Assembly (NCBI GenBank): GCA_051362555.1 | Contig: CM120645.1 | Location: forward strand, 3,286,001-3,350,000 | Reading direction: 5' to 3' | DNA: 64,000 nt | Origin: Lingula anatina | Taxonomy: Eukaryota > Animalia > Brachiopoda | Shown: in pieces, positions 2,244-56,785 of the stretch | Numbering within the stretch: position 1 is the stretch's first letter | Layout: each line of letters begins with the position of its first letter | Notes under the pieces: generated by a model | Database searches by the model: none | What the model was told of the DNA's origin: nothing | Seen by the model: the letters and a program-made list of their open reading frames with translations, nothing else | Position numbers and translations under genes: made by a program

Positions 2244-2366
2244 CCAATAGGAACCCGTCGCGTGGTATACGTTATGATAGTGCCACCAATTATTTACCTT
2301 ATATGGTAAAGATTGTGCGGGCTGACAGTCACGGCGAGGCTGGGGTGCTACGTTGATATGTATAAA
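2244..2366 (+). promoter_or_regulatory. Putative CCAAT + TATA promoter of the lectin gene (equivalents upstream of the other three copies)
   Basis: CCAAT at 2244 and TATAAA at 2361, about 125 bp before the ATG; conserved in all four units. Confidence 0.55.
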
Positions 2367-2486
2367 TACGAACCCTCGAAACACAACTTCTCACCCTTCC
2401 TCATCCACTGGAGACGCAGGGACAGAAGAGAACCCATCAAGGACGCGACAGTTGCAGCAAGAAGCCCCGTACTTCTGAACGATACC

Positions 2487-5400: not shown

Positions 5401-5514
5401 CAGTGGCAGTATGTATTTGAGCAGTTTAATGATAAATATGTGTTCAAACCCATGATTATGCAAGAAACCCGTTCTGACGTGAAACCAACCAATATCCCCA
5501 GAAACAAAAAGTAG
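2487..5514 (+). CDS. Secreted mytilectin-type beta-trefoil lectin fused to an aerolysin-like pore-forming domain, copy 1 (exons 2487-2538 and 4667-5514; 299 aa)
   Basis: Exon 1 encodes signal peptide MHLFLAIVLSASLAVAE and ends at a G|GTAAGT donor. The TTTGCAG acceptor at 4666 is phase-compatible. Motifs WGYLK, NPFGG, ALFA, IKHSGGKYVHP, IHG and MQFDF match the MytiLec pattern. The C-terminal ~125 aa has an alternating Ser/Thr-rich amphipathic stretch (GYSKTESSTLTNSWEMTIEV..TASVTYSGSYSTS) and LWQWQY. Confidence 0.85.
2937..3482. mobile_element. Rearranged (partly inverted) copy of the solo LTR + MITE, with a 54 bp perfect inverted repeat (2937-2990 / 3238-3291)
   Basis: Direct comparison with 16939-17436. 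Confidence 0.8.
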
Positions 5515-5718
5515 AAATTGGTCCAATTACCTGTCAATCTTATTAATTTACAATATCTTTATTTCTTCTTTCTCTGCTATGCTAAATATCATGGATTGGG
5601 TTTTTGTCTCTTTTCCCCCACTATTCTGTCTATTTAATATTCAGATTTTTCTGATGACATACCTATAGAGGTATTTAGCGAACACACAAAGGCGTTTTTT
5701 TTCTGGTTGGGTTTTTGT

Positions 5719-5724
5719 AATAAA
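5719..5724 (+). other. Candidate polyadenylation signal of lectin copy 1
   Basis: First AATAAA noticed after the stop, ~205 bp downstream; also present in copy 2. Confidence 0.35.
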
Positions 5725-7330
5725 CAGTGGATCATTAAGGTTGCTGTCGCTGAGAATTACACATTCTAAAATATGGTATTTGAATTCAATTCATTATAAA
5801 CAGTATCACCATAATGAAATCACTTTTAAACCCAGAAATATAGTTTATGATACACGTTTCTCACTTCAATTGCCTTCGTAGTGTACGATCACTACCTTAT
5901 ATTATATTCTATTCTATACCTCACTACCTCAACTTGTAGTCATATTAACTTATTTTTATTTCTTACTCTGATAATCTCTTATTTTGGTGGAGGAACCAAA
6001 AAAATGAGCAAAATGATAAAAAAGGTTCTGATTCTTTTCTTAATGGACAGTTGTTCAGCATGGAGGACATCTTTCACGTTTGCTGCGCCCACAGTTAGTT
6101 TCACCAAGGAGGTAGTTGTTGGGACTCCTTGGTTTCACACATTTCGATTTTTGACAGTACTTGTAAACCACACTAGACCTGTTAATCCACATATTTGTAA
6201 TAAAAGTAGAAAGACTCAGGACCACAGACACGTGCTTGACTTTTTTTTGTATCACGTCTCTCCGTTTGTTACCCTGAATCCTATTTTTTGCATATTATTT
6301 ATTTATTTATATATCTATTTATTTTGCTTGCCCCTTTTCTTTGGAACAAATTTGTTATTATTTAAAGTTCTGTTCATGGACAGTGTTTTTCACGTTTATT
6401 ACTCTCTTCAAAATGCTCAACAAACAAAGCGTAGATAAGTTTTTAATAATAAATGTATCAGACCGTTTTTATATTTTATAATTATTTAACGGAATCATCT
6501 CCAATTGAATTCCTCGTAAATAATTCAAACTTATGATTGCTTGAATAAGGACCTTATAGTCCATGGGCCAAATACCGACCCCCACCCCCTTAGTGATTTT
6601 TGTTCACTATGTTTTTCTAATAGGCCCTTAGTTTTTATTTTTTTGCGTGTTTGCCAGTAAAGTGGTTGTTGGTGTGTCTTGGTAACACACGGGTTAAAAA
6701 ATGACAGTTCTGAGGCCAACAAAATCTTAAATATTTCAAATGCATTGACTAAATGACATTTAAAATCATTCTAGAGTCATTCTAAAATCATTCTAAAATG
6801 AGAGCTATATTCCTCATTTCATCTTAAATTTGGATGAGAACTTATTTTCATAATACTGCTCATCACTACTAGATGTGTGTCCATGTAAAATGATTAAAAA
6901 AGAAAGATGAAATGGTCAACAATAACCGAAGACTAGGTAACAGCAAATCTTGATTGGCTTTCCAATGAACTACAGCCAAGACATTTCACCTGTTACCATA
7001 AAGCCTTAATCCTGAATATGCAATTAAATATGGACAAGTATTTCCATGAAAGCAGTGTAGAAAGGTCATATAAGATTGCAATTGACTGCACAACTTTTAG
7101 AATTATACGTTTCTTGCATTAAAATTCATACCCGCACTGTCAATTGTGGCCATGTTGAATTTTGGAACAACCAAGCAAATATAATATGGCCAAATAAAAA
7201 TAATTTATATTTAGATTATAGGTTAATTATGTTCAACAGAAAGTGTAAGATACATTTTGAAAGAAAAAAGTAACATTTATTCAGTTAGCACAGCAATATG
7301 TATACACCGTGTTTTGTGATGGCCACCTTG

Positions 7331-8332
7331 AGTTCCTTCGTCATTTCATCCTCAGAAAGTTTTTCACAGTATTTATTATATGCAGATTGGTACTTTTCAA
7401 ATAATTCATCGTACTGTTCCAAATTTGTTTTCACGATATGAAGGTTATTAAAGTCAGTCATAGCATTCACTATTTTGTTACAGCATACTGTAACTGAGCG
7501 TAGCGCTGCACTTTTTCTGTCCTTTAAAGTTTTAATGGTAGTTGTGTCTGACTGTGGTACATCTGCGTTTGTTTCACCGTTCATGATGCCAGTGTTCGGA
7601 ACAAAATATTTGTACTAATATTGTAGACGACGTTACGCATAAAATGACTGAATCATTTATTGTCTTTTAGATAGCACAATTTGTTACAGTTTCGTTATCA
7701 AAATGGACACCGTGGCACGTTTGTTCTTTGTGTACGTTGAGCTTTTGTACAAATCTAAAAAAAAATGAAAAATGACATAAGTATGCGACAAACAATAAAC
7801 TCATAGAAACTAATATAAACAAACTACGGTATATACGTTAAAGTAAAAATAAAAAACATTTTACAATTACTCACATTATATGCTATCTACGGTTCCAAAC
7901 ACAGGTGACCGACCGGTATGCTTGCTACTTGTCTTCTGAATTCTCTATATATTTCTATACCACACACACCCAAAATCACGTGACTGATTACTGTTCGCAT
8001 AACTAAGAGTGACCACACCCGCACAAAAACGAAGTAGATACTCCAGCGCAGTAGACTACTGCAATCATACTGCAAACATGCTTCAAATCTGCTTCGATGT
8101 GGGAGCTAATTAGCATATTTGAAACATGCTTCTATCATGCTGCTAATCTACTGCATTAATGCTCCTCCTCTGTACAAGCCTATGTAATTTTTGAAGTAGA
8201 ATTGCAGTAGGCTATACTGCATTTCTACTGCAAATATGCTCCACACCTCTACTGCGTTTAAAATGCTTCTTTGCTACTTCGATACTACTGCATTTTCGTG
8301 CGGGCAAGGTCATGTGATTTGGTGCACTAACA
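7331..8332 (-). mobile_element. Truncated LTR retrotransposon: 5' LTR (8332-7593), PBS and start of a gag-like ORF (possibly BEL/Pao)
   Basis: TGTT...AACA termini; TGGCATCA PBS-like motif 1 nt after the LTR; helical ORF from 7584; absent from type B units. Confidence 0.65.
8018..8304. mobile_element. EnSpm/CMC-like MITE
   Basis: TIR CCCGCAC(G/A)AAAA...TTTTCGTGCGGG with 2 bp TSD CA; nested in the LTR. Confidence 0.8.
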
Positions 8333-8540
8333 CTTGGATTGGCTGCCATTTTGGCAATTTAACTATGATATTTTTTCAAATAATTTCATTAATTGCTGAG
8401 GCCCAAGTCTTATTTTATAAGATTACAATACAGGTACCCGCGTTCATATATTTGAAATACATGACAATTTAAAGGTCTCAGAAATTATAATTCAAAACCC
8501 CTGTATTACTATGGCCACAGCTAAATCTGTCACACCCATA

Positions 8541-10250
8541 ATAATAATAATAATTATACTACAACTACTACTACTACTACTACTACTACTAATTATAATA
8601 AATTTATTTTGAGTCTAAACTCCATTATTACATGTTCAGAAGACTTTACATATACATAAACAATTACTAAATAATCATTTATTAGGAATAGATAAATAAA
8701 TAAATTACAGAGTTTAACGACAAAAAATTAAGAGTGTTCACATAAAAGTACTTACAGTACATAGCTAAAATATGTTTGTGAAGAAGAAATAATCAATTCT
8801 AGGTAAAAAAAAAGCCTTATTTACATATAGAAAAATTATAAGTATAAGCCTTATTTCTTACAGTGGAAAAATGCAATTACTATAACATTTGTAAAAACAA
8901 TTTAAAAGTTGATTAGTCAAAAAAAATTCCTGAATAGGTATGTCGTTAATTCTTTTTTAAAATACTTGGTAGATTCAATTGATCGGATTTTCAGTGGTTA
9001 TAAATTCCATTCCTTTGGACCTGCTGATTTAAAAGAAATGTCACCATAAGTTTTTAGGCGCATTTTTACCAGCTTATATAAGTAACAATTTGTCTACAGA
9101 CCGCACGTTTCTTGCTGGAACATAGTGAGTGACTAATTCACTTAGGTAGATCGGTGCGACTTTGTAAAAAGCGTCATGAACAAGACTAGAAATTTAAAAC
9201 AATCCTGGCTTGCAGTCAGGTAGCCAATGTAACTCTGCTAAAACTGGGGTGATATGGTTACTCATGGATGTACGGGTTGATAATTTAGCTGAGATGTTCT
9301 GAATACGCTGCAGTATTTTAATGTTTTTTTGACACCCATATAAAATAGAATTACAGAAACCCAATCTAGACGTTACTAAACAATTTGTAACTGTACATGT
9401 AGCTGCAGCAGAGTCAGAGAGGTGATTACGAATTGTGCATATGTTCCTAATATTAAATACTGCTCACTTGCATATGCTAGCAATTTGATTATTCATAGAA
9501 AGCGTTCTATCAACCACCCTCGTAGATCATCAATACACTTAGACAGCTTTTCCATTGATTCATTAGGATTTTTTACATTACAGCATGTTAAAATTTGCGT
9601 ATCATCAGCATAGATGTTATAGCCAAAACTGTGATGTCTCAATATGGCCCCAGTGGGTCATGTATAGAAAGCTAGAGGTCCAAGAACATTACCTTGAGAT
9701 GCACCAAAAGCTAACTCTGACACATTTGACAATATTCCATTAATTAAAACCTGTTGTGAGCGACCTGTATGATAAGAGCGTAAAAGACTAAGTGCAGAGT
9801 CCCTGATATCAACATAATCTTGTAGTTCATGATCGATTGTATCAAAAGCTGCAGACAGGACAAATAAGACTAAAAGAATCATTGAGTGTTCATTGACTCC
9901 ACACGGGAGATCACTTTTTTATTCTTAGCAGTGGTGATTCAGTACTGTGTCTGGCCTAAATGTGATAGTAATCTTGCAGCAATGACCCTTTCAACGGTTT
10001 TTGATAGAAACGAGAGGTTAGACACAGATCTGTAATTTCCAAATGTATCAGTGTCTAGAGATGGCTTTTTTAGTAGGGCTTGAACCACACCTTTCTTGAG
10101 TTGACCAGTGAAAGAACCAGAAACAAAACTAGTACTGATGATGTGTGTTATCAGGTTGATGACAGCAGGGAGTATCTGAACCATGGGCGCTGTCGACATT
10201 GGATCAAGTATGCATGACGTCTTCTTAGAATTGTTAATTATTTTTGTAAT
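8541..10250 (-). mobile_element. Decayed, 5'-truncated CR1/L2-group LINE (reverse transcriptase 3' part)
   Basis: Fragments LLKKPSLD..NYRSVSNLSFLSKTVER, LSAAFDTIDH, QG.VLGP and LQRIQN; simple-repeat 3' tail at ~8541-8600; multiple frameshifts. Confidence 0.85.
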
Positions 10251-10470
10251 GTAATATTTTCATCTTGATGACTTCATGGTTTGGCAACAAAGCTAGAAAA
10301 CGTGTCAGTTTTGGTGTTTCAACTTCAAAGTTTTACAATTAAAGCAAAAATAACCTTTCGACTAATTATTTCCTGTGGGAGAAAAAAATCTTTTCAAGGG
10401 GTAAGCACTCTGTATACTGCTCCTAGCGCTTCCATCCTGTTGTCAGCAATACACAGAGCCAGCCGCATCT

Positions 10471-10929
10471 TTAGTCGACTTCTTCATTAATTCTTTTGTA
10501 ATCCATTCGATAAACGTAATACTCAATCTCATACATGACAACGGGCTTGATATAATGAAATGAGATGGGGTACCTGCTACAGCATTCAAAACCCTGGAAA
10601 AGATTAAGAAAAAATACAGATCAGCGGTAGTTATTGGTAATGAAGTATATTCTATACTGATGTACACGCAAGAGTGCTAAAATATCAAGGCCAAAGTTAA
10701 CATAAAGTAACAGTAGGTACTAGTAGTATGTTTTCGTCGGGATGTCTAGGTTGAACGTTTTGAATCTGCAATAATACAATTGTTCAATAAAGAAAAGTTG
10801 ACATTTGTAGTAAAATCTGTTTAACCAAATTGAACAACAGTGTAGTAAACGGGGCAATTTTACAAAAAAATAAAAATAAAATAATAAATAAATAAATAAA
10901 TAAATGAATAAATAAATAAAAAATAATAA

Positions 10930-11002
<73 letters not shown>

Positions 11003-11465
11003 TGGCGAATTTGTCTAGTTTCGTTTGTTATGCTGTTTTTAACAATACAAGGGCGGGAGGGGTGAGCTCCGAAGGGGTGGGTGTGGAGGAGGCAGTGGCC
11101 CGCTGTAAGCACCACCCCCTTAGTCTGCCTTCGTATCTTCAGGGCCCCATCTAAATAAAATATATAATCATAAAATTTAAGATCGGCTGGTGTGGACTTT
11201 ATCCTACCCACCTCCACTGCCCCATGAGCGTCCCCCTTTTTATACCAGTCAGCGTAGTGGCCCTTCAGGTGGACATAAGGAGGAAAAATCATAAACCGCT
11301 CTCTGCCCAACTCGTCCCGAGTGTCCACCGGTTCGGCACCAACACTTAACAAGCATTTCGCCGTTTTCATGTCCTCGGCTGATGTCCAGAAAACAAATGG
11401 CAGATTAAAATACTAAATCAAGTCAGAATATTTTTTGTTGATTTTAAGCCTATTGCGTGATCAGT

Positions 11466-16488: not shown

Positions 16489-19468
16489 ATGCATTTGTTC
16501 CTGGCTATAGTGCTGTCTGCCAGCCTGGCGGTTGCCGAAGGTAAGTTCCAACATGATTCGAAGGTCGATCTTGCTCTTACCAAGGGCTTTCACGAACTCT
16601 TGACTGCATTTCAACCTCTTAGAACGCTAGACCGAACCTAGTGTAGGAACGTTTCCCGGAAACCGAGATTTAAACAGAGACCGTGACAGAGAATCAGATA
16701 GTCACCCATTGTTCTCTGGGCTTTATTCATTTCATCCGGGAAACGCGCTCCACCCCAAAGTGTGTAATGCCCTTGCTTTTAGCATCTTCAATTAAAGTTT
16801 TTGGTGAAGCTGCCCCCACCCACCCACCCACCCATAAAAAGCCTAAAAGTTGATCCTAAGACAAAATATTTAGTGCACTCCAGTTCAGGATAAAAACATA
16901 CCGGTCTATTAAAATAAATGTTTGGTACATGTACGAGGTGTGACGACGTTATTGGCTTCATGTTACGCGTGGTACCAAATACAACTCAGTTATGGACTTT
17001 CTTATTATTTATTGAACTACTTTCCAGTTGTTACATGTGCCGCTTCCTTTACCCCTACTTCTACCTCATGCAGTCTCTAGGGGCCTTCTTCTCCTGTTTA
17101 CATTATGCGTGGTTGTATAAATATCATGAGAGCATGTCATTCAACTAAAGTTACTGTACAAAACACTCCCCGATCTTAGTCACTGCATGCTGTCACTAAA
17201 GCCCCCTTTACACTGGGCGGCGTCCTTTCTGCGTCCAGCAGTCCGGCCCCATTTGAGAGTTAAAAAATTATAATATTTTACGTGCCGACAACTGGCCGAT
17301 CATTGAGCATTCATTCTGATACAAAATTAATGCTCATGCCTCCTTATTAAGACCACAGCGATGCCAAATTTCATGGTCGCAGAAAGAACGCAGAAAGAAC
17401 GCCGTCCAGTGTAAAGGGGGTATTTCTAACATTACAGAGGTATTGTTTAGTGAGGAACCACTGCCTAATCTGTTGTCCAAAATATAGCTGGATATATAGC
17501 AAATATAACAAGGATATGCCACTTTACTGATAACATACCTGACAGAGGCGCCCCTTCCAATCGCTGAGCGTCGGTGCTTCAGAGATTTTTAGTTCATCAA
17601 TATCAAAACAAAGAATTCAGTCTTAAGAGAGGGTCCGAGAACATTAATTGTCAAGTAACCGTACAGCTACAGTCTAGCACACAAGTTTATAACGAGCAAA
17701 ATATTTTCCTTTGATAACTGCAAGAAAATCAACTTCTCAGATTATGTATATTTAACCAACAAACCCGATAACCTGCCGATCACATTCTGGTATGTATATG
17801 AATAACCATTCAACGTAAAATGATACCCCTGTATGTTCAAGAACATGTACATCTGCAATGTCTGAGTCTTGAACTGAAAAATTTTGCAGATGGATTGCAC
17901 GACTAGGAAAGCTCATTGACAAATATGAAACAAAAGAAAAAGAAATAAAATTCAAAGTTCACACTCATGAATTTGATGTTCATTATCACATATTGTAATC
18001 TAATGGAAATTGTGATGGTTTAAATTCAAAGGAGGTCAGAAAGTGCAAGAAATGTGTTCTCCAATCTGTCGCATGCCTAGTTGAATAGGTCAATGATAAT
18101 ATTTAGGTATTGTTCTTGAGACCCACTATAGCAAAACACAGTCAAGTTAAAAGCTAATGTTATATTTTTTTCTTGCCACTGAAATAAGGTTACAAGGGGT
18201 TGGGAAAACACACCCTTTATTTTCTTTGCATAAAGGGGGGATTGTACTCAGCGAACTGCTTCAACTTATATAAATCGATGACGACTTTCCTTCTTAACGT
18301 CGTTTCATCGATTGATTAATCGATTTTAGGTTGATACATGTTAGTTTGGTAACCAAGCTGAAGGGTCGTTTTTGTGATCTCTTGGTTTATTAATTAGTTT
18401 TTCAGCTTATGTTTTTTCGCGATTGATCGATGATTTATTCAATCGTTTCATTTGTTGTATGGTTGACAATGTAATTAAATGATTGAATTTGCAGTTGATG
18501 GATGATTTGATTGTGAAACAGCTCGATTGAGTGGTTAATTAACCAATATGTCGAATGACTGGTTTGTATGATAGTTGGTCGTCCAATTAGTAAATGACAG
18601 ACGGTTACTTTGGTTTGCAGGAGGATACGTCAGCCCTAGGTTCATTGTTAGGCACAGGTCTAGCGGCCGTTGTTACGCCTATGCTGACTGGTGGTCCTGG
18701 GGCCATCATTATGAAAAATTCCGTGCAGACAATTGCCCCAATGCGGCTGAACTAGAATGGCATCAGAAGGAAGGACACTGGGGCTATCTGAAGGTCGTAG
18801 GCACTGCCGGACATTGTTTGAACCCCTTCGGCGGCTGGGCTCATCCAGGAGACAATACAGCAATTTTCCCACATCCAAATTGCTACAATTCTGCATTGTT
18901 TGCAATCAACCAAGAGAAGGGCTTCATCAAACATTCTGGGGGCAAATATGTTCACCCGTACCCATATAACGGTGAAATGCCAAGCTGGCATTCCGATACG
19001 ATGATACACGGAGGAACTTTCTCAAATATGCAGTTTGACTTTCTTAACCGCAACCTCCAGAAAGTTCAGGTTATTCCAAACCCATCAGTTGCCGGAGACT
19101 GGGTTAAAATCAGCTGTTGGGGCCATGTTGGCCCTGGGTCTTTGTCGTATACATTTAAAGCTGGCTACTCTAAAACCGAGTCCTCGACGTTAACAAATTC
19201 ATGGGAAATGACCATCGAAGTGGCCAAAAAAGTCATTACAGCCAGCGTCACCTATAGTGGTTCTTACTCAACCTCCTACGAATCGCAATGGACGCAGGAA
19301 CGGGAAATAACCAGAACAGTCACTGTCACTGTAGCTGGCACCATATGTTTGTGGCAGTGGCAGTATGTATTTGAGCAGTTTAATGATAAATATGTGTTCA
19401 AACCCATGATTATGCAAGAAACCCGTTCTGACGTGAAACCAACCAATATCCCCAGAAACAAAAAGTAG
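16489..19468 (+). CDS. Secreted mytilectin-type lectin / pore-forming protein, copy 2 (exons 16489-16540 and 18621-19468; 299 aa)
   Basis: Translation identical to copy 1; same splice sites. Confidence 0.85.
16939..17436. mobile_element. Solo LTR in the lectin intron with a nested MITE (~17199-17421)
   Basis: TGT...ACA termini, 4 bp TSD GAGG, empty site in type B units (~37419). Inner TIR CCCCCTTTACACTGG...CCAGTGTAAAGGGGG. Confidence 0.7.
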
Positions 19469-22492: not shown

Positions 22493-24025
22493 TAATAATA
22501 ATAATAATTATACTACAACTACTACTACTACTACTACTACTACTAATTATAATAAATTTATTTTGAGTCTAAACTCCATTATTACATGTTCAGAAGACTT
22601 TACATATACATAAACAATTACTAAATAATCATTTATTAGGAATAGATAAATAAATAAATTACAGAGTTTAACGACAAAAAATTAAGAGTGTTCACATAAA
22701 AGTACTTACAGTACATAGCTAAAATATGTTTGTGAAGAAGAAATAATCAATTCTAGGTAAAAAAAAGCCTTATTTACATATAGAAAAATTATAAGTATAA
22801 GCCTTATTTCTTACAGTGGAAAAATGCAATTACTATAACATTTGTAAAAACAATTTAAAAGTTGATTAGTCAAAAAAAATTCCTGAATAGGTATGTCGTT
22901 AATTCTTTTTTAAAATACTTGGTAGATTCAATTGATCGGATTTTCAGTGGTTATAAATTCCATTCCTTTGGACCTGCTGATTTAAAAGAAATGTCACCAT
23001 AAGTTTTTAGGCGCATTTTTACCAGCTTATATAAGTAACAATTTGTCTACAGACCGCACGTTTCTTGCTGGAACATAGTGAGTGACTAATTCACTTAGGT
23101 AGATCGGTGCGACTTTGTAAAAAGCGTCATGAACAAGACTAGAAATTTAAAACAATCCTGGCTTGCAGTCAGGTAGCCAATGTAACTCTGCTAAAACTGG
23201 GGTGATATGGTTACTCATGGATGTACGGGTTGATAATTTAGCTGAGATGTTCTGAATACGCTGCAGTATTTTAATGTTTTTTTGACACCCATATAAAATA
23301 GAATTACAGAAACCCAATCTAGACGTTACTAAACAATTTGTAACTGTACATGTAGCTGCAGCAGAGTCAGAGAGGTGATTACGAATTGTGCATATGTTCC
23401 TAATATTAAATACTGCTCACTTGCATATGCTAGCAATTTGATTATTCATAGAAAGCGTTCTATCAACCACCCTCGTAGATCATCAATACACTTAGACAGC
23501 TTTTCCATTGATTCATTAGGATTTTTTACATTACAGCATGTTAAAATTTGCGTATCATCAGCATAGATGTTATAGCCAAAACTGTGATGTCTCAATATGG
23601 CCCCAGTGGGTCATGTATAGAAAGCTAGAGGTCCAAGAACATTACCTTGAGATGCACCAAAAGCTAACTCTGACACATTTGACAATATTCCATTAATTAA
23701 AACCTGTTGTGAGCGACCTGTATGATAAGAGCGTAAAAGACTAAGTGCAGAGTCCCTGATATCAACATAATCTTGTAGTTCATGATCGATTGTATCAAAA
23801 GCTGCAGACAGGACAAATAAGACTAAAAGAATCATTGAGTGTTCATTGACTCCACACGGGAGATCACTTTTTTATTCTTAGCAGTGGTGATTCAGTACTG
23901 TGTCTGGCCTAAATGTGATAGTAATCTTGCAGCAATGACCCTTTCAACGGTTTTTGATAGAAACGAGAGGTAAAACACAGGTCTGTAATGTCTAAATGTA
24001 TCAGAGTCTAGAGATGGCTTTTTTA
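22493..24025 (-). mobile_element. Same LINE remnant, unit 2 (cut by the insertion)
   Basis: Homologous to 8541-10072. Confidence 0.85.
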
Positions 24026-24188
24026 TGCCCCTATTTCACACAGACCACGAATCCCACAAATGGCCATGACTTGACAAATTACGGCGCCAATTACAGCCGG
24101 CCCCCCAGGAGTCAACGGCAACCCCTACCACGACGAAGTCGTCAGAGCAAAAGCTTACCTGAAAGGCTGCTCTGACTGGGCAGACCAC

Positions 24189-24590
24189 ATGCTCAAACAA
24201 CTCGGCAACAACGCCCACCATGTCAGATGCCGTGTAGACTTCAGGGGATGCCCTGATGACGACATCCTTCTGGCAACAATGATCAACATACAAGACAAGG
24301 CCGCAACGGAGCTTAAATCCGCGATCGAGGCCCACACGCAATCTTTCGTAGACAAAGCTAAGGAAAGCTTGGCAAAGGCAGAAGAGAGGGAATCCAGGGC
24401 GGAAGAGCACTTCAACATCCACGGCGTGTACACGCCAGGACACCAACCCTCTACTTCAACGACCGCAAACAACCAGATCATGGAGCAAATGAGACTCCTC
24501 ATTCTCGCCATGAAGGACAAGAAGAAGAGCCGCGTGCTAGCCAGCAAAGTGAAACGAAGACTAACCTCAGTCAAGAAAACCACACTGTAA
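24189..24590 (+). CDS. Unknown helical protein with basic C-terminus (133 aa; frame open from 24075, possibly from ATG 24060 across one TGA)
   Basis: GC content clearly above the flanks with coding-like composition; coiled-coil-like stretch and a K/R-rich tail. Confidence 0.55.
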   Translation: MLKQLGNNAHHVRCRVDFRGCPDDDILLATMINIQDKAATELKSAIEAHTQSFVDKAKESLAKAEERESRAEEHFNIHGVYTPGHQPSTSTTANNQIMEQMRLLILAMKDKKKSRVLASKVKRRLTSVKKTTL

Positions 24591-24628
24591 AATAGAAGCC
24601 ATTGCTTCGACGTCCTAAAAAAAAAAAC

Positions 24629-24667
24629 GGCCCTTTTCAGGGCACCCCATTTCTACCAGGAAAAGCT
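24629..24667 (+). promoter_or_regulatory. Histone-mRNA-like 3' stem-loop plus purine-rich downstream element
   Basis: AAAC-GGCCCT-TTTC-AGGGCA-CCCC 38 nt after the ORF stop, then CAGGAAAAGCT; second copy TGCCCT-TTTC-AGGGCC at 25584-25599. Confidence 0.55.
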
Positions 24668-24713
24668 AAACCTGAATGTTCAAATAGAGCGCAATAAATC
24701 ATACCACAAATAA

Positions 24714-25698
24714 AAGGCGAGATGCCTTCCCCACATTTATTTATAATCAATAAAGCAAAGAAAAGTCATTCTGGAGATAAAGCAAAATGCCCTAATCTCA
24801 CTTAGACCAAATTTTAACACTTACAGGGCACAATCGACTTATAAGACACAAACATCGCAAATAAAAGGCGAGATGCCTTCTCACTTTATTTATAAGCAAC
24901 AAGGAAAAGGAATCCAAAATTAAAAAAGGTGCCCGAAACCTATACAGACCATCTCAGCAAATGAAAAGTCAGTGTTAACACGTATATGCACAGCATAAGA
25001 ATACTAATAAATTTGATCCGAGGTTAAAAAACCTTGCCAAAAATGAAACCAATAAACTACATCTAAACAGAAAGGATTAAGATACACCACGAGAACAGCC
25101 AATCAAAACTCATAATCTAAACAACCAATCAGATCCCGGCCTCGTTCTCGTTTTGACACAATTTCAACAAATCCTCAGTCGACCTCCGACTCTTGAGCCA
25201 TTCACACGCTCAATTCATACCGTCCACTTTGACACAAGCGAGACACTTGTGATCAAGCATGATACTATAAAGCCGAGATGGCTCGTATCATTCACAATGG
25301 CGAGACACCATTGATGAAAACTCGCTAAACGAAGCATGATACTTAAAAGCCGAGATGCCTCGTATCATTCACAATGGCGAAACACCATTGATGAAAACTT
25401 ACTAAACAAAGGCGAGACACCTTTGCTTACCAACCCCTACGTCCCTAAATTTTCTTTTTTTTTTTATTATCGGACTCTGCAGCTGATGAAGGTCACTTGT
25501 TGACCGAAAAGCGCTTTCTGCAACCAGTCCACCCTCCCCCTTCCCCCGACAGGCGAGATGCCTCTATTGTGCCAATCACGAAATGCCCTTTTCAGGGCCC
25601 CCTGTGTAGATCGGTATCTATAAATCTCATACGAAGTAGGCGAGACACCTACTCTCTTATCAAAGACATTCTTTCCCTATAATAAAGGCGAGAAGCCT
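24714..25698 (+). repeat. Array of 11 short hairpins with conserved CGAGAYR-like 7 nt loops; includes a 77 bp tandem duplication (~25256-25407)
   Basis: Stems differ in sequence but remain complementary in 10 of 11 copies. Confidence 0.75.
25478..25522 (+). ncRNA. Minimal type I hammerhead ribozyme
   Basis: Stem I TGCAG/CTGCA, core CTGATGA, stem II GGTCA-cttgt-TGACC, GAAA, palindromic stem III AAGCGCTT, predicted UUU cleavage triplet. Confidence 0.75.
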
Positions 25699-26066
25699 AA
25701 CACACTCTAAGAGTCGCTGTCATTTCTGCAAGGGGCGCTGTAAAAATACACGTCCTCAGAGGCCCAGCTCTGAATCGTGTTATTTTGGTAAAGTGGAATC
25801 TAACTAGGTCATGAGCCCACCACCCCCAACACACACGCAAGAGTGGTAAAATATCTAGGCCAAAGTTGACATAAAGTAACAGTAGGTACTAGTAGTATGT
25901 TTTCGTCGGGATGCCTAGGTTGAACGTTTTGCATCTGCAATGATACAATTGTTCAATAAAGAAAAGTTGACATTTGTAGTAAAATCTGTTTAACCAAATT
26001 GAACAACAGTGTAGTGAACGGGGCAATTTTACAAAAAAAAAAAATATAAAAAAAAAATAATAATAA

Positions 26067-26358: not shown

Positions 26359-27764
26359 CTCCACTGCCCCATGAGCGCCCCCCTTCTTATACCAGTCAGC
26401 GTAGTGGCCCTTCAGGTGGACATAAGGAGGAAAAATCATATACCGCTCTCTGCCCAACTGGTCCCGAGTGTCCATCGGTTCGGCACCAACACTTAACAAG
26501 CATTTCGCCGTTTTCATGTCCTCGGCTGATGTCCAGAAAACAAATGGCAGATTAAAATACTAAATTAAGTCAGAATATTTTTGTTGATTTTAAGCTTATT
26601 GCGTGATCAGTGGATATATATATATAGAAGGTACCCTGGATATGTTACATTGTATAAGGACATTATGTTTATTGAGACAGAATATACGTTTGAACCAAAT
26701 AGGACGGTGCAATGTGAAATCTTCTCTACCACAATCTATCTCATGTATTTCCAATTTGTGTGATTATGAATACAGTTGCCTATAAAGATTGCTTGAGTTT
26801 TCACGTGTACTATAAGGTTATAAATGTTGTTAAAATATGCTGGGCAAATACCGTCATGCGGATTTCATTAGAAATATATATGTATATTGACTATTGAACA
26901 TTTTAACACGTCATTTTAACATACTTGTATGTGTCATCTGAAACGAAAGGAGATCTGTGAGAGATATGCAACTTGAATAATAATAGGTTAAATAGATGAA
27001 ACGATATACAGGCTGTTCTTTGTACAACGACTTATATTGAATTGAGATTGAAAGTAAAAATAGTCGTTTCAATGGACCACCCTGTACACTCCCCAGGGAG
27101 GTGAGACCGTCTACAGAGTGCACCAGTGCAAAAATGACCAGGCTTCCTTGACTTGAATATTCATTTCATTTAAATAAATAATTTACATAATTGTATAACT
27201 TCAACCTTCGGGTTGTGATTTTCCAATAAAGATTATTATTATGTATGGAATACATACCCTCTCCGTCCTGCAGGCATTTCGGGTCGCTGTTAATGGCTTT
27301 CGTAACAAGCAATCTGACAGCTTCCCTGCTAGACACAAACCCTGGACCTCCACTCATATACACGGACTTCTTAATTCTAGTATCAGCGTTGAATTCCCAA
27401 TCACTGGGGTAAAACTGGTGTCCATAAAACTCTGCCCTCTTTGGGTCCCTAGATGATAGACAATGTTTCAAATTTTCTACAATTACGTATGTATCAGGGT
27501 CAGCTTTGATAAAGAAATCTGCGTCGTTCAGATGATGCTCGTAAATGTATTTCCATGCAGCTTTGGCCTTTTTTGCAATGTATCCTCTCCCGGGTGGTAC
27601 ACGTAAACCAATTGTTGGGAACGTCTTATTTTCCATGGAGCTCATAAATAATGTGACGTCACATCTTCTCGCCCACGTGTCTCTGACGTGAATAACGCGC
27701 TTGTCGAGATCTGGAGGATCAGTAAGTAGCCAACAAAGAACTGTTGGCATTGGAGGTCCTTTTT
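26359..27764 (-). pseudogene. C1GALT1: C1GALT1-like copy 2 (exons 27764-27258 and 26525-26359); terminal CCS/SFHY exon deleted
   Basis: Both exons are open with intact splice sites, but the segment equivalent to ~10073-10664 is replaced by the 24026-25830 insertion. Confidence 0.75.
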
Positions 27765-29143: not shown

Positions 29144-31953
29144 CTGTGTGCTCTTGTTCACGCATTCTAACCGAGGACACACACCCGCCCGAAACCCACT
29201 AACCGAGGACACACCTCCAACCGAGGACGTCCTCGGTTGACATAAGCAGTGGAATGCATAAAGGGGCCCATTTCAAGTTAGGTGGTGAAATTTGACGCTA
29301 TTCTGAGCCAGTCCTCGGTTATGCTGTATAGCGCGGGCCAAATTCCCGCCACGAGTGTATCAGAAATACTGTCCAACTTTTTGTCTGAAATCGAGCTATA
29401 CACACGCGTCCTCGGTTGTGCTGTAAAGGGCGGACCAAATTCCGCGTCCTCGGTTGTGCTGTAAAGGGCAGACTAAACTGAAACTAATGTTATATCTCAG
29501 ATGTCTATATATTCAGTAAGTTCATATTTTTAAACTAAAGGTCTTTTTTATCAAATTAAGCTCTCCTAGGCTTTTCATAAAACTCACAGAACTGATGATT
29601 ATAAGTAAAAGAATGGTCAAGATTGAAAATCAGCATGACCAGGCCCTTTTCTTTCAAATGTTATGCTGTTTTTTTTTTTTTTTCAGCATATAAGTAACAC
29701 TGTAAGCACATTTCAGGGAGAACCAATAAGCCTGTTTTCATGAAACTCACAGGAGTAATCAATGTTATCTATATACAAATCAAGTTTAAAAATAAGATTG
29801 ATTGGTTGAGTTTTGAGGGACTTCAGCTTTTATTTGTATATAAGTGGTTTTCCTCAGATTTGATTGTCAGGCATGTTGACAGTTTCGTTATTGAACTAAC
29901 TAGATATGTAAATATGTTAGTGTTTGTCTGAAATTTTCTGCATCTTTACAACATTGCTAGTTGATTATATAAATATGACGGTAAACATGTTATCATGTAC
30001 TGTGTAATACAGTGTCTCAAAATGGAGGAAATGGGGTGATTATTTTCAAAAGTTTTGCATTTTTTTTCTCCTTTTTTCAGTGTACATGCAACACTGTAAA
30101 CACACTTCAAGGAGAACCAATAGGCCTGTTTTCATGAAACTCAGAGAACTAATGATTATTAGTAAATTAAAAAGAATGATCAAGATTGAAAATCAGCATG
30201 ACCAGGCCCTTTTCTTTCAAATGTTATGCTGTTTTTTTTTCAGCATATATGTAACACTGTAAGCACATTTCAAGGAGAACCAATAAGCCTGTTTTCATGA
30301 AACTCACAGAACTGATGATTATTAGTAAAAGAATGGTCAAGATTGAAAATCGGCATGACCAGGCCCTTTTCTTTCAAATGTTATGCTGTTTTTTTTTAAG
30401 CATATAAGTAACACTGTAAGCACATTTCAGGAAGAACCAATAACTTAAAGCCTGTTTTCATGAAACTCACAGAACTGATTATTATGAGTAAAAGAATGGT
30501 CAAGATTGAAAATCAGCATGACCAGGCCCTTTTCTTTCAAATTTTATGCTGTTTTTTTTTTTTTAGCATATAAGTAGTTCACTGTAAGCACATTTCAGGG
30601 AGAACCGATAGGCCTGTTGTCATTAAACTCACAAGAGTGATCAATGTTATCTATATACAAATCAAATTTAAAAATAAGATTGATTGGTTGAGTTTTGAGG
30701 GACTTCAGCTTATATTTGTATATAAGTGGTTTTCCTCAGATTTGATTGTCAGGCATGTTGACAGTTTCGTTATTGAATTTACTAGATATGTAAAATGGGT
30801 TGTTTGACAATTTCTGCGTCTTGACAATATTGCTAGTTGATTATATAAAAATGGTGGTAAACCTGTTATCTTGTATTGTGTAAAAAAAGTGCCAAAATGG
30901 AAATGAACTCGTATCATTGTAGTTTGTCAGATTCAATCATTCACAATGTTCGGAATGGAGGAAATTGGACATTTAAACTTGTTATATTGATATTTTTGCC
31001 ATCTCAACAATTTTCTTAGTTGATCATGTGAAATGGCAGTAAACTGTATTATTTTATGTAAAAAAGTTAAAAATGGAAAGAAACCCATTTCAGTACAGTG
31101 CTCTCTTGTATACATTTAGCATTTTCAAAGTATGACTTTGGAGTTCCATGAACCTGAAAACCTTTGCTAGTCACATTTTCTGAATATTCATGATACTAAT
31201 ATTTTATTATAAAAAATTGATGATCATTATGCTGTTAAGCATTATATAATATTGCATCAAATTGGAAGAAAGCACAATTTTGGGTGCTGCTGGCATGATG
31301 TCCTCAATTGTAAAATTGTGTACTGTGCAAGTCTGTATCCAATGGACGACACTTTGTGTTATCAAAATATAAAATTCATGATAATAAAAGAGTGCTAAAT
31401 AGAAAATAAGCATTATGAAAATAAAATGTTTGAAAACGAATTTCTTTGGTCTTTTATTTTATTTCATCAGTATCCTTTCTTTTCCTAAATTAATTGATGT
31501 TTTATCTCATAATCTTCAATTCTAAAAAAGTGGCAAAGCCCAGCATTAAATATTGTATAACTGTTCATTTAATCATCACCTCTGGTGTTATTTTGGAATT
31601 TACCTTAAATATGAAAGAATTTCATAAAAATGTGAATTTCTGCAAAGTAACGCTATATAAAATTTGCTTTGCATTAAAAGTACAATCATTATTACATGTA
31701 GATGCATGCATGTCCTCGGTTGTAATGTGTAGTGTCTGTCCGTGTGTGTGTCCGTGTGTGTCCTCGGTTAGAATGTAAAATTCTTGTCAGCAAAAAATTA
31801 GTTTTTATAAAAAATTAATTTATAACATTCATACTCGAATAGATTTTACCCTAAATTGATGTTTTTATTTTGATTTAACCAAGGAATAAGATGTCCTCGG
31901 TTGTATGGTGTTGTGCTGATGTCCTCGGTTGGTACACATAGACAAGTACACAC
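29144..31953. mobile_element. ~2.8 kb non-autonomous DNA transposon-like insertion in a (CA)n tract, with an internal ~125 bp minisatellite
   Basis: Absent at the equivalent (CA)n at ~13945-13980; imperfect TIRs; AACCGAGGAC/GTCCTCGGTT motifs clustered at both ends; no credible ORF. Confidence 0.7.
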
Positions 31954-34900
31954 ACACACACACAGCTCTTCCTGTGTATATTTTAATTATGAAGAGAAAA
32001 TAGAGAATTAACATCTTTGTTACTTGTATTTTTACCTGGTCTCGAGGCATGCTGGTCCGTATCTATCTCCTCACGAGAACGAGTTAGTGGTCCCTGTATA
32101 ACAAGTTGTACTGCTATGTTAGATATTACTATGGCGGGTATCACGGTGAAATAAATTTGGCTTCGCCTCATGTACAATGAAAATGAAAATGCCGTATTGG
32201 GGGTAGGTTATATGCCAAATGTTTCTCTCATGCCCCACAGGTGGATTTCCATACGCTTGTATATATTTCTGTGCATGTGTCCTTTGCGACATCTCATTAT
32301 TCCAGTCTCTCGTTTGACGAAGACTGTTTTTCAAGTTAAAGGAGGCCATTGTTCTCGCTTGTACGTACTGTACTTGTATGAATACCTTATGTATTCGCTA
32401 ACGTCGGTGAATATGGACAAAATACGGGATAAGATCTATGATAATATCCTGTAGAAAATATCTTTAACTTTGTTATGGACCTGATATATTCTAGTTTGGA
32501 CTCAAAACACTCATTGGTCCAAATGAGCTTTTTTCTTGTAGATATGCATGTTTATGTACATTATTAGACCTAATTCTATAGGACCTCGCATTTTGCGTGA
32601 CAAATTTCATTGCTGCATGTCTAGCCGAAAATAGGGCAGGCTGTGCAGCTTAGTAAATCGAAGATCGAAGTAAGAGATAGTCAAGGTGCTGAAAAAGAGC
32701 GATGAATATCAACTGGTACTTCCACATGTACATATGGGTGTGTAATACAATCTTTATACACAAACATATAAGTAAAAGACATTTTTTGAGCTAAAGATAA
32801 TTTATGCCACTGGCCCCTGTGCACGTTCGTATTGCGGAAAAAAGTTTGAAGTCGGTAAGGTATGGTTGCGCTTCTCTAAACTTTAAACATTGACTTGTTT
32901 TTTCTTGTTCATGTATGTCAATAAGTAATCATTATTACATGTAAATGCATGCATGTCCTCGGTTGTAATGTGTAGTGTCTGTCCGTGTGTGTGTCCGTGT
33001 GTGTCCTCGGTTAGAATGTAAAATTCTTGTCAGCAAAAAATTAGTTTTTATAAAAAATTAATTTATAACATTCATACTCGAATAGATTTTACCCTAAATT
33101 GATGTTTTTATTTTGATTTAACCAAGGAATAAGATGTCCTCGGTTGTATGGTGTTGTGCTGATGTCCTCGGTTGGTACACATAGACAAGTACACACACAC
33201 ACACACAGCTCTTCCTGTGTATATTTTAATTATGAAGAGAAAATAGAGAATTAACATCTTTGTTACTTGTATTTTTACCTGGTCTCGAGGCATGCTGGTC
33301 CGTATCTATCTCCTCACGAGAACGAGTTAGTGGTCCCTGTATAACAAGTTGTACTGCTATGTTAGATATTACTATGGCGGGTATCACGGTGAAATAAATT
33401 TGGCTTCGCCTCATGTACAATGAAAATGAAAATGCCGTATTGGGGGTAGGTTATATGCCAAATGTTTCTCTCATGCCCCACAGGTGGATTTCCATACGCT
33501 TGTATATATTTCTGTGCATGTGTCCTTTGCGACATCTCATTATTCCAGTCTCTCGTTTGACGAAGACTGTTTTTCAAGTTAAAGGAGGCCATTGTTCTCG
33601 CTTGTACGTACTGTACTTGTATGAATACCTTATGTATTCGCTAACGTCGGTGAATATGGACAAAATACGGGATAAGATCTATGATAATATCCTGTAGAAA
33701 ATATCTTTAACTTTGTTATGGACCTGATATATTCTAGTTTGGACTCAAAACACTCATTGGTCCAAATGAGCTTTTTTCTTGTAGATATGCATGTTTATGT
33801 ACATTATTAGACCTAATTCTATAGGACCTCGCATTTTGCGTGACAAATTTCATTGCTGCATGTCTAGCCAAAAATAGGGCAGGCTGTGCAGCTTAGTAAA
33901 TCGAAGATCGAAGTAAGAGATAGTCAAGGTGCTGAAAAAGAGCGATGAATATCAACTGGTACTTCCACATGTACATATGGGTGTGTAATACAATCTTTAT
34001 ACACAAACATATAAGTAAAAGACATTTTTTGAGCTAAAGATAATTTATGCCACTGGCCCCTGTGCACGTTCGTATTGCGGAAAAAAGTTTGAAGTCGGTA
34101 AGGTATGGTTGCGCTTCTCTAAACTTTAAACATTGACTTGTTTTTTCTTGTTCATGTATGTCAATAAGTAATCATTATTACATGTAGATGCATGCATGTC
34201 CTCGGTTGTAATGTGTAGTGTCTGTCCGTGTGTGTGTCCGTGTGTGTCCTCGGTTAGAATGTAAAATTCTTGTCAGCAAAAAATTAGTTTTTATAAAAAA
34301 TTAATTTATAACATTCATACTCGAATAGATTTTACCCTAAATTGATGTTTTTATTTTGATTTAACCAAGGAATAAGATGTCCTCGGTTGTATGGTGTTGT
34401 GCTGATGTCCTCGGTTGGTACACATAGACAAGTACACACACACACACACAGCTCTTCCTGTGTATATTTTAATTATGAAGAGAAAATAGAGAATTAACAT
34501 CTTTGTTACTTGTATTTTTACCTGGTCTCGAGGCATGCTGGTCCGTATCTATCTCCTCACGAGAACGAGTTAGTGGTCCCTGTATAACAAGTTGTACTGC
34601 TATGTTAGATATTACTATGGCGGGTATCACGGTGAAATAAATTTGGCTTCGCCTCATGTACAATGAAAATGAAAATGCCGTATTGGGGGTAGGTTATATG
34701 CCAAATGTTTCTCTCATGCCCCACAGGTGGATTTCCATACGCTTGTATATATTTCTGTGCATGTGTCCTTTGCGACATCTCATTATTCCAGTCTCTCGTT
34801 TGACGAAGACTGTTTTTCAAGTTAAAGGAGGCCATTGTTCTCGCTTGTACGTACTGTACTTGTATGAATACCTTATGTATTCGCTAACGTCGGTGAATAT

Positions 34901-35412
34901 GGACAAAATACGGGATAAGATCTATGATAATATCCTGTAGAAAATATCTTTAACTTTGTTATGGACCTGATATATTCTAGTTTGGACTCAAAACACTCAT
35001 TGGTCCAAATGAGCTTTTTTCTTGTAGATATGCATGTTTATGTACATTATTAGACCTAATTCTATAGGACCTCGCATTTTGCGTGACAAATTTCATTGCT
35101 GCATGTCTAGCCAAAAATAGGGCAGGCTGTGCAGCTTAGTAAATCGAAGATCGAAGTAAGAGATAGTCAAGGTGCTGAAAAAGAGCGATGAATATCAACT
35201 GGTACTTCCACATGTACATATGGGTGTGTAATACAATCTTTATACACAAACATATAAGTAAAAGACATTTTTTGAGCTAAAGATAATTTATGCCACTGGC
35301 CCCTGTGCACGTTCGTATTGCGGAAAAAAGTTTGAAGTCGGTAAGGTATGGTTGCGCTTCTCTAAACTTTAAACATTGACTTGTTTTTTCTTGTTCATGT
35401 ATGTCAATAAGT
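31684..35412. repeat. 1243 bp tandem repeat, 3 copies
   Basis: Exact 1243 periodicity in sequence and ORF track. Confidence 0.95.
32036..32171 (-). CDS. Putative first coding exon of transferase copy 2 (type II signal anchor and stem); repeated at 33279-33414 and 34522-34657
   Basis: Encodes MRRSQ-IYFTVIPAIVISNIAVQLVI-QGPLTRSREEIDTDQHASRP, then a phase-1 donor matching the phase-1 acceptor at 27764. Confidence 0.55.
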
Positions 35413-36958
35413 ACAGAAGAGAACAGTTTCTCTGATCATCTGTAATATCCTGCGTCGTTTTTCAAAGCAGTTTTACGAAATTATTTTTAATACGAGGTTA
35501 CACGGGGAAAGTGGAAGGTAATAAATTTTAATAGCAGGGAAATTTTGTCACTGGTACCTTTTATGTCGTTTGAAACTCAATTTTTGGCATTAAAGCTATT
35601 AAATATTTTTTGCATGCATCAAAAATTGCTCATGGATGGTTTAGTTGTTTTCACTTAAATTATAATGTTTTCAAACGGGGCAAGAATTAAGGGAGATTTT
35701 AGTCTACGTGATAACGATAACCACAGCATAATTATGCTGCATATTTTTAATCGCTTGAAACGTTTGGCCGTAAGTTTAAGTCGTGTTTGTACTGTTTGTA
35801 CATTGTACTGAATAATCATGTTTTATTGTAATGTATAGAACGAAAAGAGAAGCCATACGTTCGAAATATCGGATCAAAAAAAGGAGTTAATCACTTTTAG
35901 TGACATAGGAACAAAATTAGAAGCTGACCTGGGATACACCTGCCTGAAAAGAGGGGGGGGGGGGCACGGCGATAGATAAAAGCCTGAAGTAAAATTTACG
36001 TCAGGAAGTTTTCAAAGCCTTATTTAAGAACAAAAAGAAAGGAGACCCAATGTTGACGCACGCACGCTGCTCATGACAGTGGGTGGGAAACAGTACAATA
36101 CGAGCTGCATTTTCTACATTTATTTACTTGGAAATACAGTGTTTGCCGGCAATGGAAGCACAAGGGAATAAAACTGAGAAAAAAAAAACCCTCTCCATTA
36201 CAGCTGAATCTGAATTAATTTCGACTTCAACACGCTGGTCATACGTGAAACATTTGTCTTAAACTGTATATTTTTCAAAATGTGCTGACTCTGCCCCTGG
36301 TTGTTCGATAAAACAATATGTTGGCGGCCAGCAGCAATTGGTATCGGTAAACTGGTAAATCAGTTGATATGTTCGACTGTCAAAATAAATGCTTTAGACC
36401 TCAATAAAATAGACACAACTAAAATATACTGTATTAAACAAGCCTTCCAACAGGTGCTCATTGGTTTATGGGCCTGTAAATTGAGCGTTTCTGACCTATT
36501 TCATGTCTTCAACCTACAGTTTGTGCAGTTTCGAGGGCGCCTTTTTAATCTCCATCTCTCCTTCTTTCGGCAACTTTTCTTGCGCTACTGATTGATTCGC
36601 CCGCGATGCTTGTTCTCATGAAAGTGCCAACTATCTATTATTTAATGTTTCATCACTTTCTGGAGTCTGAAGTTACGCCCGTGAAACGTATGTCAGTTTT
36701 AAGTTGATAAAATGTCCAATAGGAACCCGTCGCGTGGTACACGTTATGGTAATGCCACCAATTATTTACCTTATATGGTAAAGATTGTGCGGGCTGACAG
36801 TCACTGCGAGGCTGGGGTGCCGCGTTGATATGTATAAATACGAACCCTCAAAGCACAACTCCTCACCCTACCTCATCCATCGGAGACGCAGGGACCCAAG
36901 AGAACCCACCAAGGACGCGACAGTTGCAGCAAGAAGCCCCGTACTACTGAACGCCACT

Positions 36959-55200: not shown

Positions 55201-55240
55201 ACATTGACTTGTTTTTTCTTGTTCATGTATGTCAATAAGT
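49026..55240. repeat. 1243 bp tandem repeat, 5 copies
   Basis: Exact 1243 periodicity. Confidence 0.95.
49378..49513 (-). CDS. Putative first coding exon of transferase copy 3; five tandem copies at 1243 bp spacing
   Basis: Identical to 32036-32171. Confidence 0.5.
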
Positions 55241-56785
55241 ACAGAAGAGAACAGTTTCTCTGATCATCTGTAATATCCTGCGTCGTTTTTCAAAGCAGTT
55301 TTACGAAATTATTTTTAATACGAGGTTACACGGGGAAAGTGGAAGGTAATAAATTTTAATAGCAGGGAAATTTTGTCACTGGTACCTTTTATGTCGTTTG
55401 AAACTCAATTTTTGGCATTAAAGCTATTAAATATTTTTTGCATGCATCAAAAATTGCTCATGGATGGTTTAGTTGTTTTCACTTAAATTATAATGTTTTC
55501 AAACGGGGCAAGAATTAAGGGAGATTTTAGTCTACGTGATAACGATAACCACAGCATAATTATGCTGCATATTTTTAATCGCTTGAAACGTTTGGCCGTA
55601 AGTTTAAGTCGTGTTTGTACTGTTTGTACATTGTACTGAATAATCATGTTTTATTGTAATGTATAGAACGAAAAGAGAAGCCATACGTTCGAAATATCGG
55701 ATCAAAAAAAGGAGTTAATCACTTTTAGTGACATAGGAACAAAATTAGAAGCTGACCTGGGATACACCTGCCTGAAAAGAGGGGGGGGGGGCACGGCGAT
55801 AGATAAAAGCCTGAAGTAAAATTTACGTCAGGAAGTTTTCAAAGCCTTATTTAAGAACAAAAAGAAAGGAGACCCAATGTTGACGCACGCACGCTGCTCA
55901 TGACAGTGGGTGGGAAACAGTACAATACGAGCTGCATTTTCTACATTTATTTACTTGGAAATACAGTGTTTGCCGGCAATGGAAGCACAAGGGAATAAAA
56001 CTGAGAAAAAAAAAACCCTCTCCATTACAGCTGAATCTGAATTAATTTCGACTTCAACACGCTGGTCATACGTGAAACATTTGTCTTAAACTGTATATTT
56101 TTCAAAATGTGCTGACTCTGCCCCTGGTTGTTCGATAAAACAATATGTTGGCGGCCAGCAGCAATTGGTATCGGTAAACTGGTAAATCAGTTGATATGTT
56201 CGACTGTCAAAATAAATGCTTTAGACCTCAATAAAATAGACACAACTAAAATATACTGTATTAAACAAGCCTTCCAACAGGTGCTCATTGGTTTATGGGC
56301 CTGTAAATTGAGCGTTTCTGACCTATTTCATGTCTTCAACCTACAGTTTGTGCAGTTTCGAGGGCGCCTTTTTAATCTCCATCTCTCCTTCTTTCGGCAA
56401 CTTTTCTTGCGCTACTGATTGATTCGCCCGCGATGCTTGTTCTCATGAAAGTGCCAACTATCTATTATTTAATGTTTCATCACTTTCTGGAGTCTGAAGT
56501 TACGCCCGTGAAACGTATGTCAGTTTTAAGTTGATAAAATGTCCAATAGGAACCCGTCGCGTGGTACACGTTATGGTAATGCCACCAATTATTTACCTTA
56601 TATGGTAAAGATTGTGCGGGCTGACAGTCACTGCGAGGCTGGGGTGCCGCGTTGATATGTATAAATACGAACCCTCAAAGCACAACTCCTCACCCTACCT
56701 CATCCATCGGAGACGCAGGGACCCAAGAGAACCCACCAAGGACGCGACAGTTGCAGCAAGAAGCCCCGTACTACTGAACGCCACT

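Follow-up and report, generated by a model that had tools for sequence, protein, structure and literature searches.

A histone-type 3′ end signal behind a non-histone open reading frame in a candidate Penelope-related retroelement

Does a gene that encodes no recognisable histone, and that sits in a mobile element, end in the 3′ signal of replication-dependent histone mRNAs? The locus that raises this question lies in a 64,000-nucleotide stretch of DNA, here called the window, in which four related units of 14-20 kb form an animal tandem array. According to the portion of PMC4604434 available to us, the sole non-polyadenylated cellular mRNAs known are those of histones, and both that portion and the accessible part of bioRxiv 10.64898/2026.10.14.759114 state that no expressed non-histone target of SLBP was found in HeLa cells. 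The histone 3′-end machinery with which we compared the locus comprises SLBP, the U7 snRNP and CPSF73.

An insert in one of four tandem units

Comparison of the tandem units and of copies in other reads delimits the insert and its first features as follows.

24026..25832, + strand: the whole insert, 1807 bp, in one of the four tandem units, where it replaces about 590 bp of the flank of unit A (10073-10663); from unit comparison
24026..24080, + strand: the terminal part of a distinct repeat of very high copy number (116,624 summed depth in X3; other copies diverge after 24066-24080)
24075..24590, + strand: an open frame of 171 codons, first ATG at 24189 (133 aa), predicted to be helical; from the ORF list, homology and a fold model

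As far as 24025 unit B follows unit A with a match of 99.9%, and the match resumes at 25833; the intervening 1807 bp are absent from three of the four paralogous units. The insert opens with 55 bp that belong to the end of the high-copy repeat, and loose ends were found around it, before 24017-24027 and behind 24066, 24074 and 24080. The junction at this repeat end is not an assembly error, because it was found unchanged in run X1 (rec 2). Anatomy and insertion status are thus read directly from the DNA. A single deletion that began within the high-copy repeat and reached the ORF would account at once for the halved repeat, the missing flank and the loss of the ORF start. The window copy is a damaged one, from which a likely single deletion removed the ORF start and the ~590 bp of flank; the bottom pair of its hairpin, described below, is also lost. 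The insert itself sits inside a decayed minus-strand fragment (~22900-24025) common to the paralogous units, which by its motifs we take to be LINE-like reverse transcriptase.

The ORF protein had been read from its sequence as no recognisable histone, and the searches agree: it belongs to no Pfam family and has neither a solved-structure match nor a fold match. Two atlas searches and a PDB sequence search came back blank. The structure model, whose confidence is low (pLDDT 57.9), consists of helices throughout, and a fold search with it gave no match at E ≤ 0.001. Among 1.84 billion representatives the sole homolog is P0001 (170 aa), at 29% identity over residues 8-147 (E 3.9e-6), and P0001 itself has a weak Pfam match only (E 0.1). 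Besides P0001 no homolog of near length or longer was found, a two-sequence profile recovered P0001 only, and the viral and metagenome contigs searched yielded none. No intron is evident in the frame. The homology to P0001 begins 30 codons upstream of the first ATG, so that the true start of the ORF has probably been lost in the window copy. Within 24026-25832 there is no ORF for a reverse transcriptase or a GIY-YIG endonuclease; the copy is 5′-truncated, and the full element is not visible in it.

As to the array in which the insert lies, each of the 14-20 kb units carries minus-strand exons of a Fringe/galactosyltransferase-like gene (27166-27750 among them, with E 7.9e-9 for Pfam Fringe), as well as an ORF on the plus strand (4621-5514, with its paralogs). 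This ORF has a weak match to CEL_III_C in its C-terminal part (E 0.068) and looks like a relative of pore-forming lectins. Eight copies of a 1243-bp unit, ~99.9% identical, are found at 31684-35413 and 49026-55241, in runs of three and five. At 2937-3291 and 16940-17245 lies a short element bounded by terminal inverted repeats of 54 nt; its interior is inverted between the two near-identical units.

A histone-type hairpin and the block downstream of it

Two features follow the stop codon of the ORF.

24625..24644, + strand: stem-loop 1, histone-type, with its AAAC flank; from Rfam, pattern search and diverged copies
24653..24673, + strand: a conserved downstream block that includes the purine-rich, HDE-like CAGGAAAAG (24657-24665); none of its 21 sites has a listed change

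The sequence-only reading had claimed a hairpin one base away from the canonical histone stem-loop, and a second near-copy at 25584. Both are present: GGCCCTTTTCAGGGCA occupies 24629-24644 and is one base from the canonical 16-mer, and TGCCCTTTTCAGGGCC is located at 25584-25599. These are the sole matches with at most two mismatches in the 64 kb, where 0.01 were expected, and none of 100 shuffles reached two. The setting of hairpin 1 is also as it had been described. The A-rich 5′ flank consists of an A run and AAAC before the stem, the stop (24588-24590) lies at a histone-like distance of 38 nt before the stem, and the purine-rich, HDE-like motif begins at 24657, 12 nt past hairpin position 16. 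In the part of bioRxiv 10.64898/2026.10.14.759114 available to us, histone hairpins are placed 25-60 nt from the stop codon, a range that the window copy fits. In these spacings and this flank, in the 16-nt hairpin with pair G2-C15 and loop U3 and in having no evident intron, the locus is like a metazoan replication-dependent histone 3′ end (RF00032, Histone3); it is unlike replication-dependent histone genes in that the upstream ORF is non-histone and the window copy scores below Rfam gathering.

A Histone3 score had been proposed as a check, and its outcome is mixed. Rfam does pick up hairpin 1 as Histone3, with 22.8 bits and E 0.0024 in a 2.1-kb search, and this score stays below the gathering threshold of 34; no Rfam match above gathering occurs anywhere in the 64-kb window. 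A RAGATH-25 match (23.9 bits, gathering 49) that overlaps hairpin 1 was taken as incidental. Both hairpins fold with only five pairs each. In the window copy of hairpin 1, pair 1-16 is a G/A mismatch and five of the six stem pairs are formed, with the two features diagnostic of histone hairpins, the G2-C15 pair and the loop U3, both present. Neither Pfam nor sequence inspection revealed a histone sequence upstream of hairpin 1 in the window. Downstream of it, AATAAA occurs at 24693 and 24709, which would allow ordinary polyadenylation.

Other copies are represented by 13 contigs from sequencing run X3 and 10 from run X10 (what follows refers to the 16 pieces and 12 of the 18 loose ends listed). 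Absence of the hairpin from such copies, together with polyadenylation elsewhere, had been named as the observation that would speak against the reading; what we found is that diverged copies keep the hairpin, with one compensatory change, together with the downstream block. Each of the three diverged contigs that can be read on both sides forms pair 1-16: X3 rec 11 and X10 rec 4 have G-C there, and X10 rec 3 has A-U. The last of these, which has 28 differences over 200 nt, carries a compensatory two-sided change from G-C to A-U at this pair. C16 is present in two further contigs that hold the 3′ arm only (X3 rec 15 and X10 rec 5), and X3 rec 13 is the window sequence exactly. All three of the contigs readable on both sides have six stem pairs, one of them containing a G-U: in X10 rec 4 the diagnostic pair 2-15 becomes G-U, which weakens the conservation pattern.

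With each site counted once, the core of the hairpin taken together with the downstream block of 21 nt has 1 variable site in 35, and other non-coding sequence has 23 in 85 (one-sided Fisher p 0.0012, which is indicative only, as the boundaries were drawn post hoc, the copies are related and short contigs are anchored on conserved blocks). The ORF stop is unchanged across copies, and of the indel rows none falls in the ORF and five in the non-coding part. In the last 19 codons of the ORF, 7 of 10 substitutions alter the residue, and therefore its C-terminal tail is weakly constrained. The conservation pattern is, like the anatomy, a direct observation. Judged from it, hairpin 1 and the downstream block make up a predicted cassette of a histone-type 3′ end that is conserved across diverged copies, and we take the histone-type signal to be real, selected in the family and damaged in the window copy, with a function that is predicted.

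The same pattern bears on the possibility that the 3′ end of a histone gene was captured once and is now decaying without function, its apparent conservation being an alignment artefact. Under this explanation the imperfection of both window hairpins, which lie below Rfam gathering, would be expected, as would the RNA reads described below, none of which is shown to be sense RNA, and the statistics are post hoc. The two-sided A-U swap in a contig as diverged as X10 rec 3 is hard to reconcile with it, as is the persistence of the hairpin in long contigs that are anchored beyond, and not solely on, the hairpin, and the window holds no histone sequence upstream. We therefore consider a decaying capture very improbable.

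The 3′ half and its Penelope-like features

The remaining features lie between the downstream block and the end of the insert.

24716..25693, + strand: ten short modules around G(G/C)CGA(G/A)A, nine of them as hairpins of 4-6 bp; from sequence inspection
25473..25528, + strand: the motif of a minimal type I hammerhead ribozyme, with its core at 25483 and a predicted cut after 25517; from pattern search and the features in PMC4209133
25584..25599, + strand: stem-loop 2, histone-type, 5 bp, 74 nt after the hammerhead GAAA; from pattern search, with the order as in L065 (see below)
25725..25832, + strand: a 3′ terminal block common to diverged copies and closed by an AC-rich run; from the joints 25314/25725 and 25548/25748

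The hammerhead lies between hairpin 1 and hairpin 2. It is made up of an extra base before a 5-bp helix II, a palindromic loop III and a 5-bp helix I with a 4-bp extension, and it is the only one in the window; two of 100 shuffles yield one. Its cut triplet is UUU, a slow hammerhead cleavage site. Minimal hammerheads of Penelope-like elements likewise have a palindromic loop III and an extra base ahead of helix II, as given in the part of PMC4209133 that we could use, and in the Anolis Penelope-like element PAc reverse transcription begins in an AC-rich stem-loop (PMC11167929, in part). The AC-rich 3′ end of the insert shares 4 bp of microhomology with the flank. The insert is thus like Penelope-like elements in its minimal hammerhead near the 3′ end, in its AC-rich terminus and in 3′ ends that are far commoner than bodies. 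It is unlike them in having no ORF for a reverse transcriptase or GIY-YIG enzyme and in having a short orphan ORF and histone-type hairpins. Another likeness is to animal non-LTR retrozymes, which are also non-autonomous, carry a type I hammerhead and are thought to derive from Penelope-like terminal repeats (PMC7229834 and bioRxiv 10.64898/2026.07.22.740005, each in part). Retrozymes are short, non-coding and tandem, with a hammerhead in each unit, whereas the present element is at least 1.75 kb long, single here and coding, with one hammerhead in the window.

No purine-rich, HDE-like block follows hairpin 2. The G(G/C)CGA(G/A)A modules are possible protein-binding sites; their number differs in other copies, and the module region includes a 77-bp tandem duplication (25255-25411). 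A TATA-like sequence lies at ~25619, and an ATG at 25811 opens a proline-rich frame that runs to the end of the insert. Together they might represent a promoter and the opening codons of a tandem unit that follows; no joint supporting such a unit was seen.

The order of hammerhead and hairpin was then used as a search pattern. Viral contigs gave no match, and metagenomes gave 120 loci in 52 of 64 parts scanned, mostly chance matches, none of which passed the preset hammerhead filter. Locus L065 was chosen after the filter, for its 7-bp helix II. It has, in order, the end of an ORF, a minimal hammerhead with a helix I of only 2 bp, a canonical histone hairpin of 16 nt and, after it, another ORF, which is long; within L065:500-592 the hairpin is fully canonical, 45 nt past the hammerhead and without an HDE-like block. 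By hand arithmetic, the chance of the 14-nt hairpin pattern is ~9e-7 per hammerhead end over a span of 31 nt, a figure that applies to single ends. Pfam found nothing on L065, and viral contigs held no relatives of it. Comparison with the N-terminal region of L065 showed no similarity (probability 0.3) and so did not support the window ORF as a free-standing Penelope N-terminal helical domain, a candidate identity that we had considered. The ORF end of L065 itself we take, by its motifs, to be a Penelope-like endonuclease. One of its motifs matches a figure in the available part of the PMC8557442 supplement. The word 'histone' has no occurrence in the main text of PMC8557442, and the 12-nt hairpin core was not found in its Naiad, Chlamys and Hydra consensus files, in which line breaks could hide a match.

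Read depth distinguishes subfamilies and parts of the element. In X10 one subfamily reaches a summed depth of ~1,200-2,800 alongside contigs at 25-46. Toward the 3′ end depth climbs in two DNA runs, from 7.5 (ORF) to 70-99 in X1 and from 78-298 to 2,355-11,446 in X3, where summed depth is not copy number and is used relatively only; the rise resembles what would be expected of 5′-truncated retrocopies. The diverged-copy contigs overlap at 24652-25143, 24939-25209, 25180-25535 and 25506-25772, so that linkage comes from overlapping pieces, and none of them spans the whole element. No reverse transcriptase or endonuclease was found accompanying the element, and the 13 joints listed include no head-to-tail joint that would point to the partial-tandem pseudo-LTR arrangement, with tail, of Penelope-like elements; the window holds a single truncated copy. 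That the locus belongs to a selfish element, as had been proposed, gains support from its absence from three paralogous units, from depth that varies strongly between subfamilies and from the Penelope-type hammerhead.

The explanation that we prefer, and for which we consider the case evenly balanced, is a non-autonomous Penelope-related retroelement whose small non-histone gene uses SLBP/U7 processing and whose message is non-polyadenylated. From the features above we infer processing, SLBP binding, ribozyme cutting, timing and the route and enzyme of mobilisation. U7 and CPSF73 would cut ~5 nt after hairpin 1, and the product would be the mRNA that encodes the small helical protein. Transcripts escaping this cut would extend across both the hammerhead and hairpin 2 as far as the AC-rich end and would be copied in trans by an autonomous Penelope-like enzyme. 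A bolder proposal is that a Penelope-related lineage uses the histone mRNA pathway as a switch between two fates, a U7-cut mRNA with cell-cycle or oocyte timing and an uncut retrotransposition template with the hammerhead and a second SLBP site. RNAs of mobile elements would then be natural non-histone substrates of SLBP and U7 in marine invertebrates. This proposal we hold as tentative and rather doubtful.

The two halves of the insert may instead have separate histories. Here the ORF, hairpin 1 and the HDE would be a real histone-route gene, from a host multigene family or carried as cargo by a DNA transposon, and the Penelope end an old separate insertion that was co-duplicated with it. Depth at the hammerhead end is 10-30 times that over the ORF, and hence this end also occurs on its own; the ORF does not resemble a Penelope N-terminus (that of L065); and the insert opens with the end of another high-copy repeat, at a junction that is unchanged in X1. 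All three fit separate origins, but contigs of diverged copies overlap all the way between the HDE and the 3′ block, and the hairpin recurs behind the hammerhead both here and in L065, with both halves of the insert sharing the same unusual signal. Separate histories thus seem to us unlikely.

RNA reads, known systems and other loci

The region 24500-24740 is covered by two reads in X12 and eight in X13, all with the first mate on the + strand, and the reads over the ORF in X12 and X15 likewise all have the first mate on +. Reads of this orientation possibly represent RNA antisense to the ORF, as in most stranded libraries, the strand being uncalibrated here. No pile-up of read ends was seen among the ten reads of X12 and X13, both of which are poly(A)-selected. 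A single X13 read runs across both hairpin 1 and the HDE, further reads lie downstream, and in X12 one read pair, which belongs to a diverged copy, ends within 20 nt past 24643. Poly(A) selection would deplete the predicted mRNA, and ~6% of each of these two runs was read. The RNA data neither show nor exclude the predicted histone-route mRNA, and they give no support for a 3′ end at hairpin 1.

A read that spans the hairpin and the HDE would also be expected if the hairpins bind SLBP on uncut element RNA, where they would aid its export or translation, protect it from decay or act as a decoy, with no U7 cleavage and with the downstream block kept for other reasons. Neither hairpin 2 nor the L065 hairpin has an HDE-like block, which fits such a role, and a cut at hairpin 1 would part the ORF from the end needed for copying. 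Set against these points are the purine-rich block itself, at histone spacing and with 0 of 21 sites variable, and the place of hairpin 1, 38 nt past a conserved stop. SLBP binding without cleavage is, in our judgement, distinctly unlikely.

In the literature that we covered, to which subscription papers, Repbase and bioRxiv supplements did not belong, we found no transposon or non-histone gene with stem-loop/U7 processing. The nearest likeness is to HERV1/LTR12 under U7 snRNA (PMC11417402, in part), where HDE-like motifs also occur in a retroelement. That case is unlike the present one in that U7 there represses transcription, and the abstract describes no stem-loop-based 3′ processing.

Under the preferred explanation, that of a Penelope-related retroelement with a histone-route message, a mobile non-histone gene selected to keep the full signal would break the rule that, among cellular mRNAs, those of histones alone end in a stem-loop in place of poly(A). 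Transposons would gain expression timed to S phase or the oocyte and might evade poly(A)-linked surveillance. The natural variants, with A-U at pair 1, G-U at pair 2 or an open pair 1, are useful for direct SLBP/U7 tests. The layout of hammerhead plus hairpin, in the insert and in L065, bears on RNA processing in Penelope-like elements.

Some further loci came out of the metagenome scan. A repeat family of 18 loci (L002, L004, L013, L015 and 14 similar ones) has a 5-bp histone-like core with pair 1 unpaired and no hammerhead, and was set aside; it comes from one collection prefix. Of 11 loci picked by eye from the 120, six (L019, L044, L048, L055, L067 and L078) reach the Histone3 gathering threshold, with no histone Pfam match upstream of their hairpins in the frames scanned. 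L044 and L067 bear several hairpins, and L055 also has a reverse transcriptase fragment.
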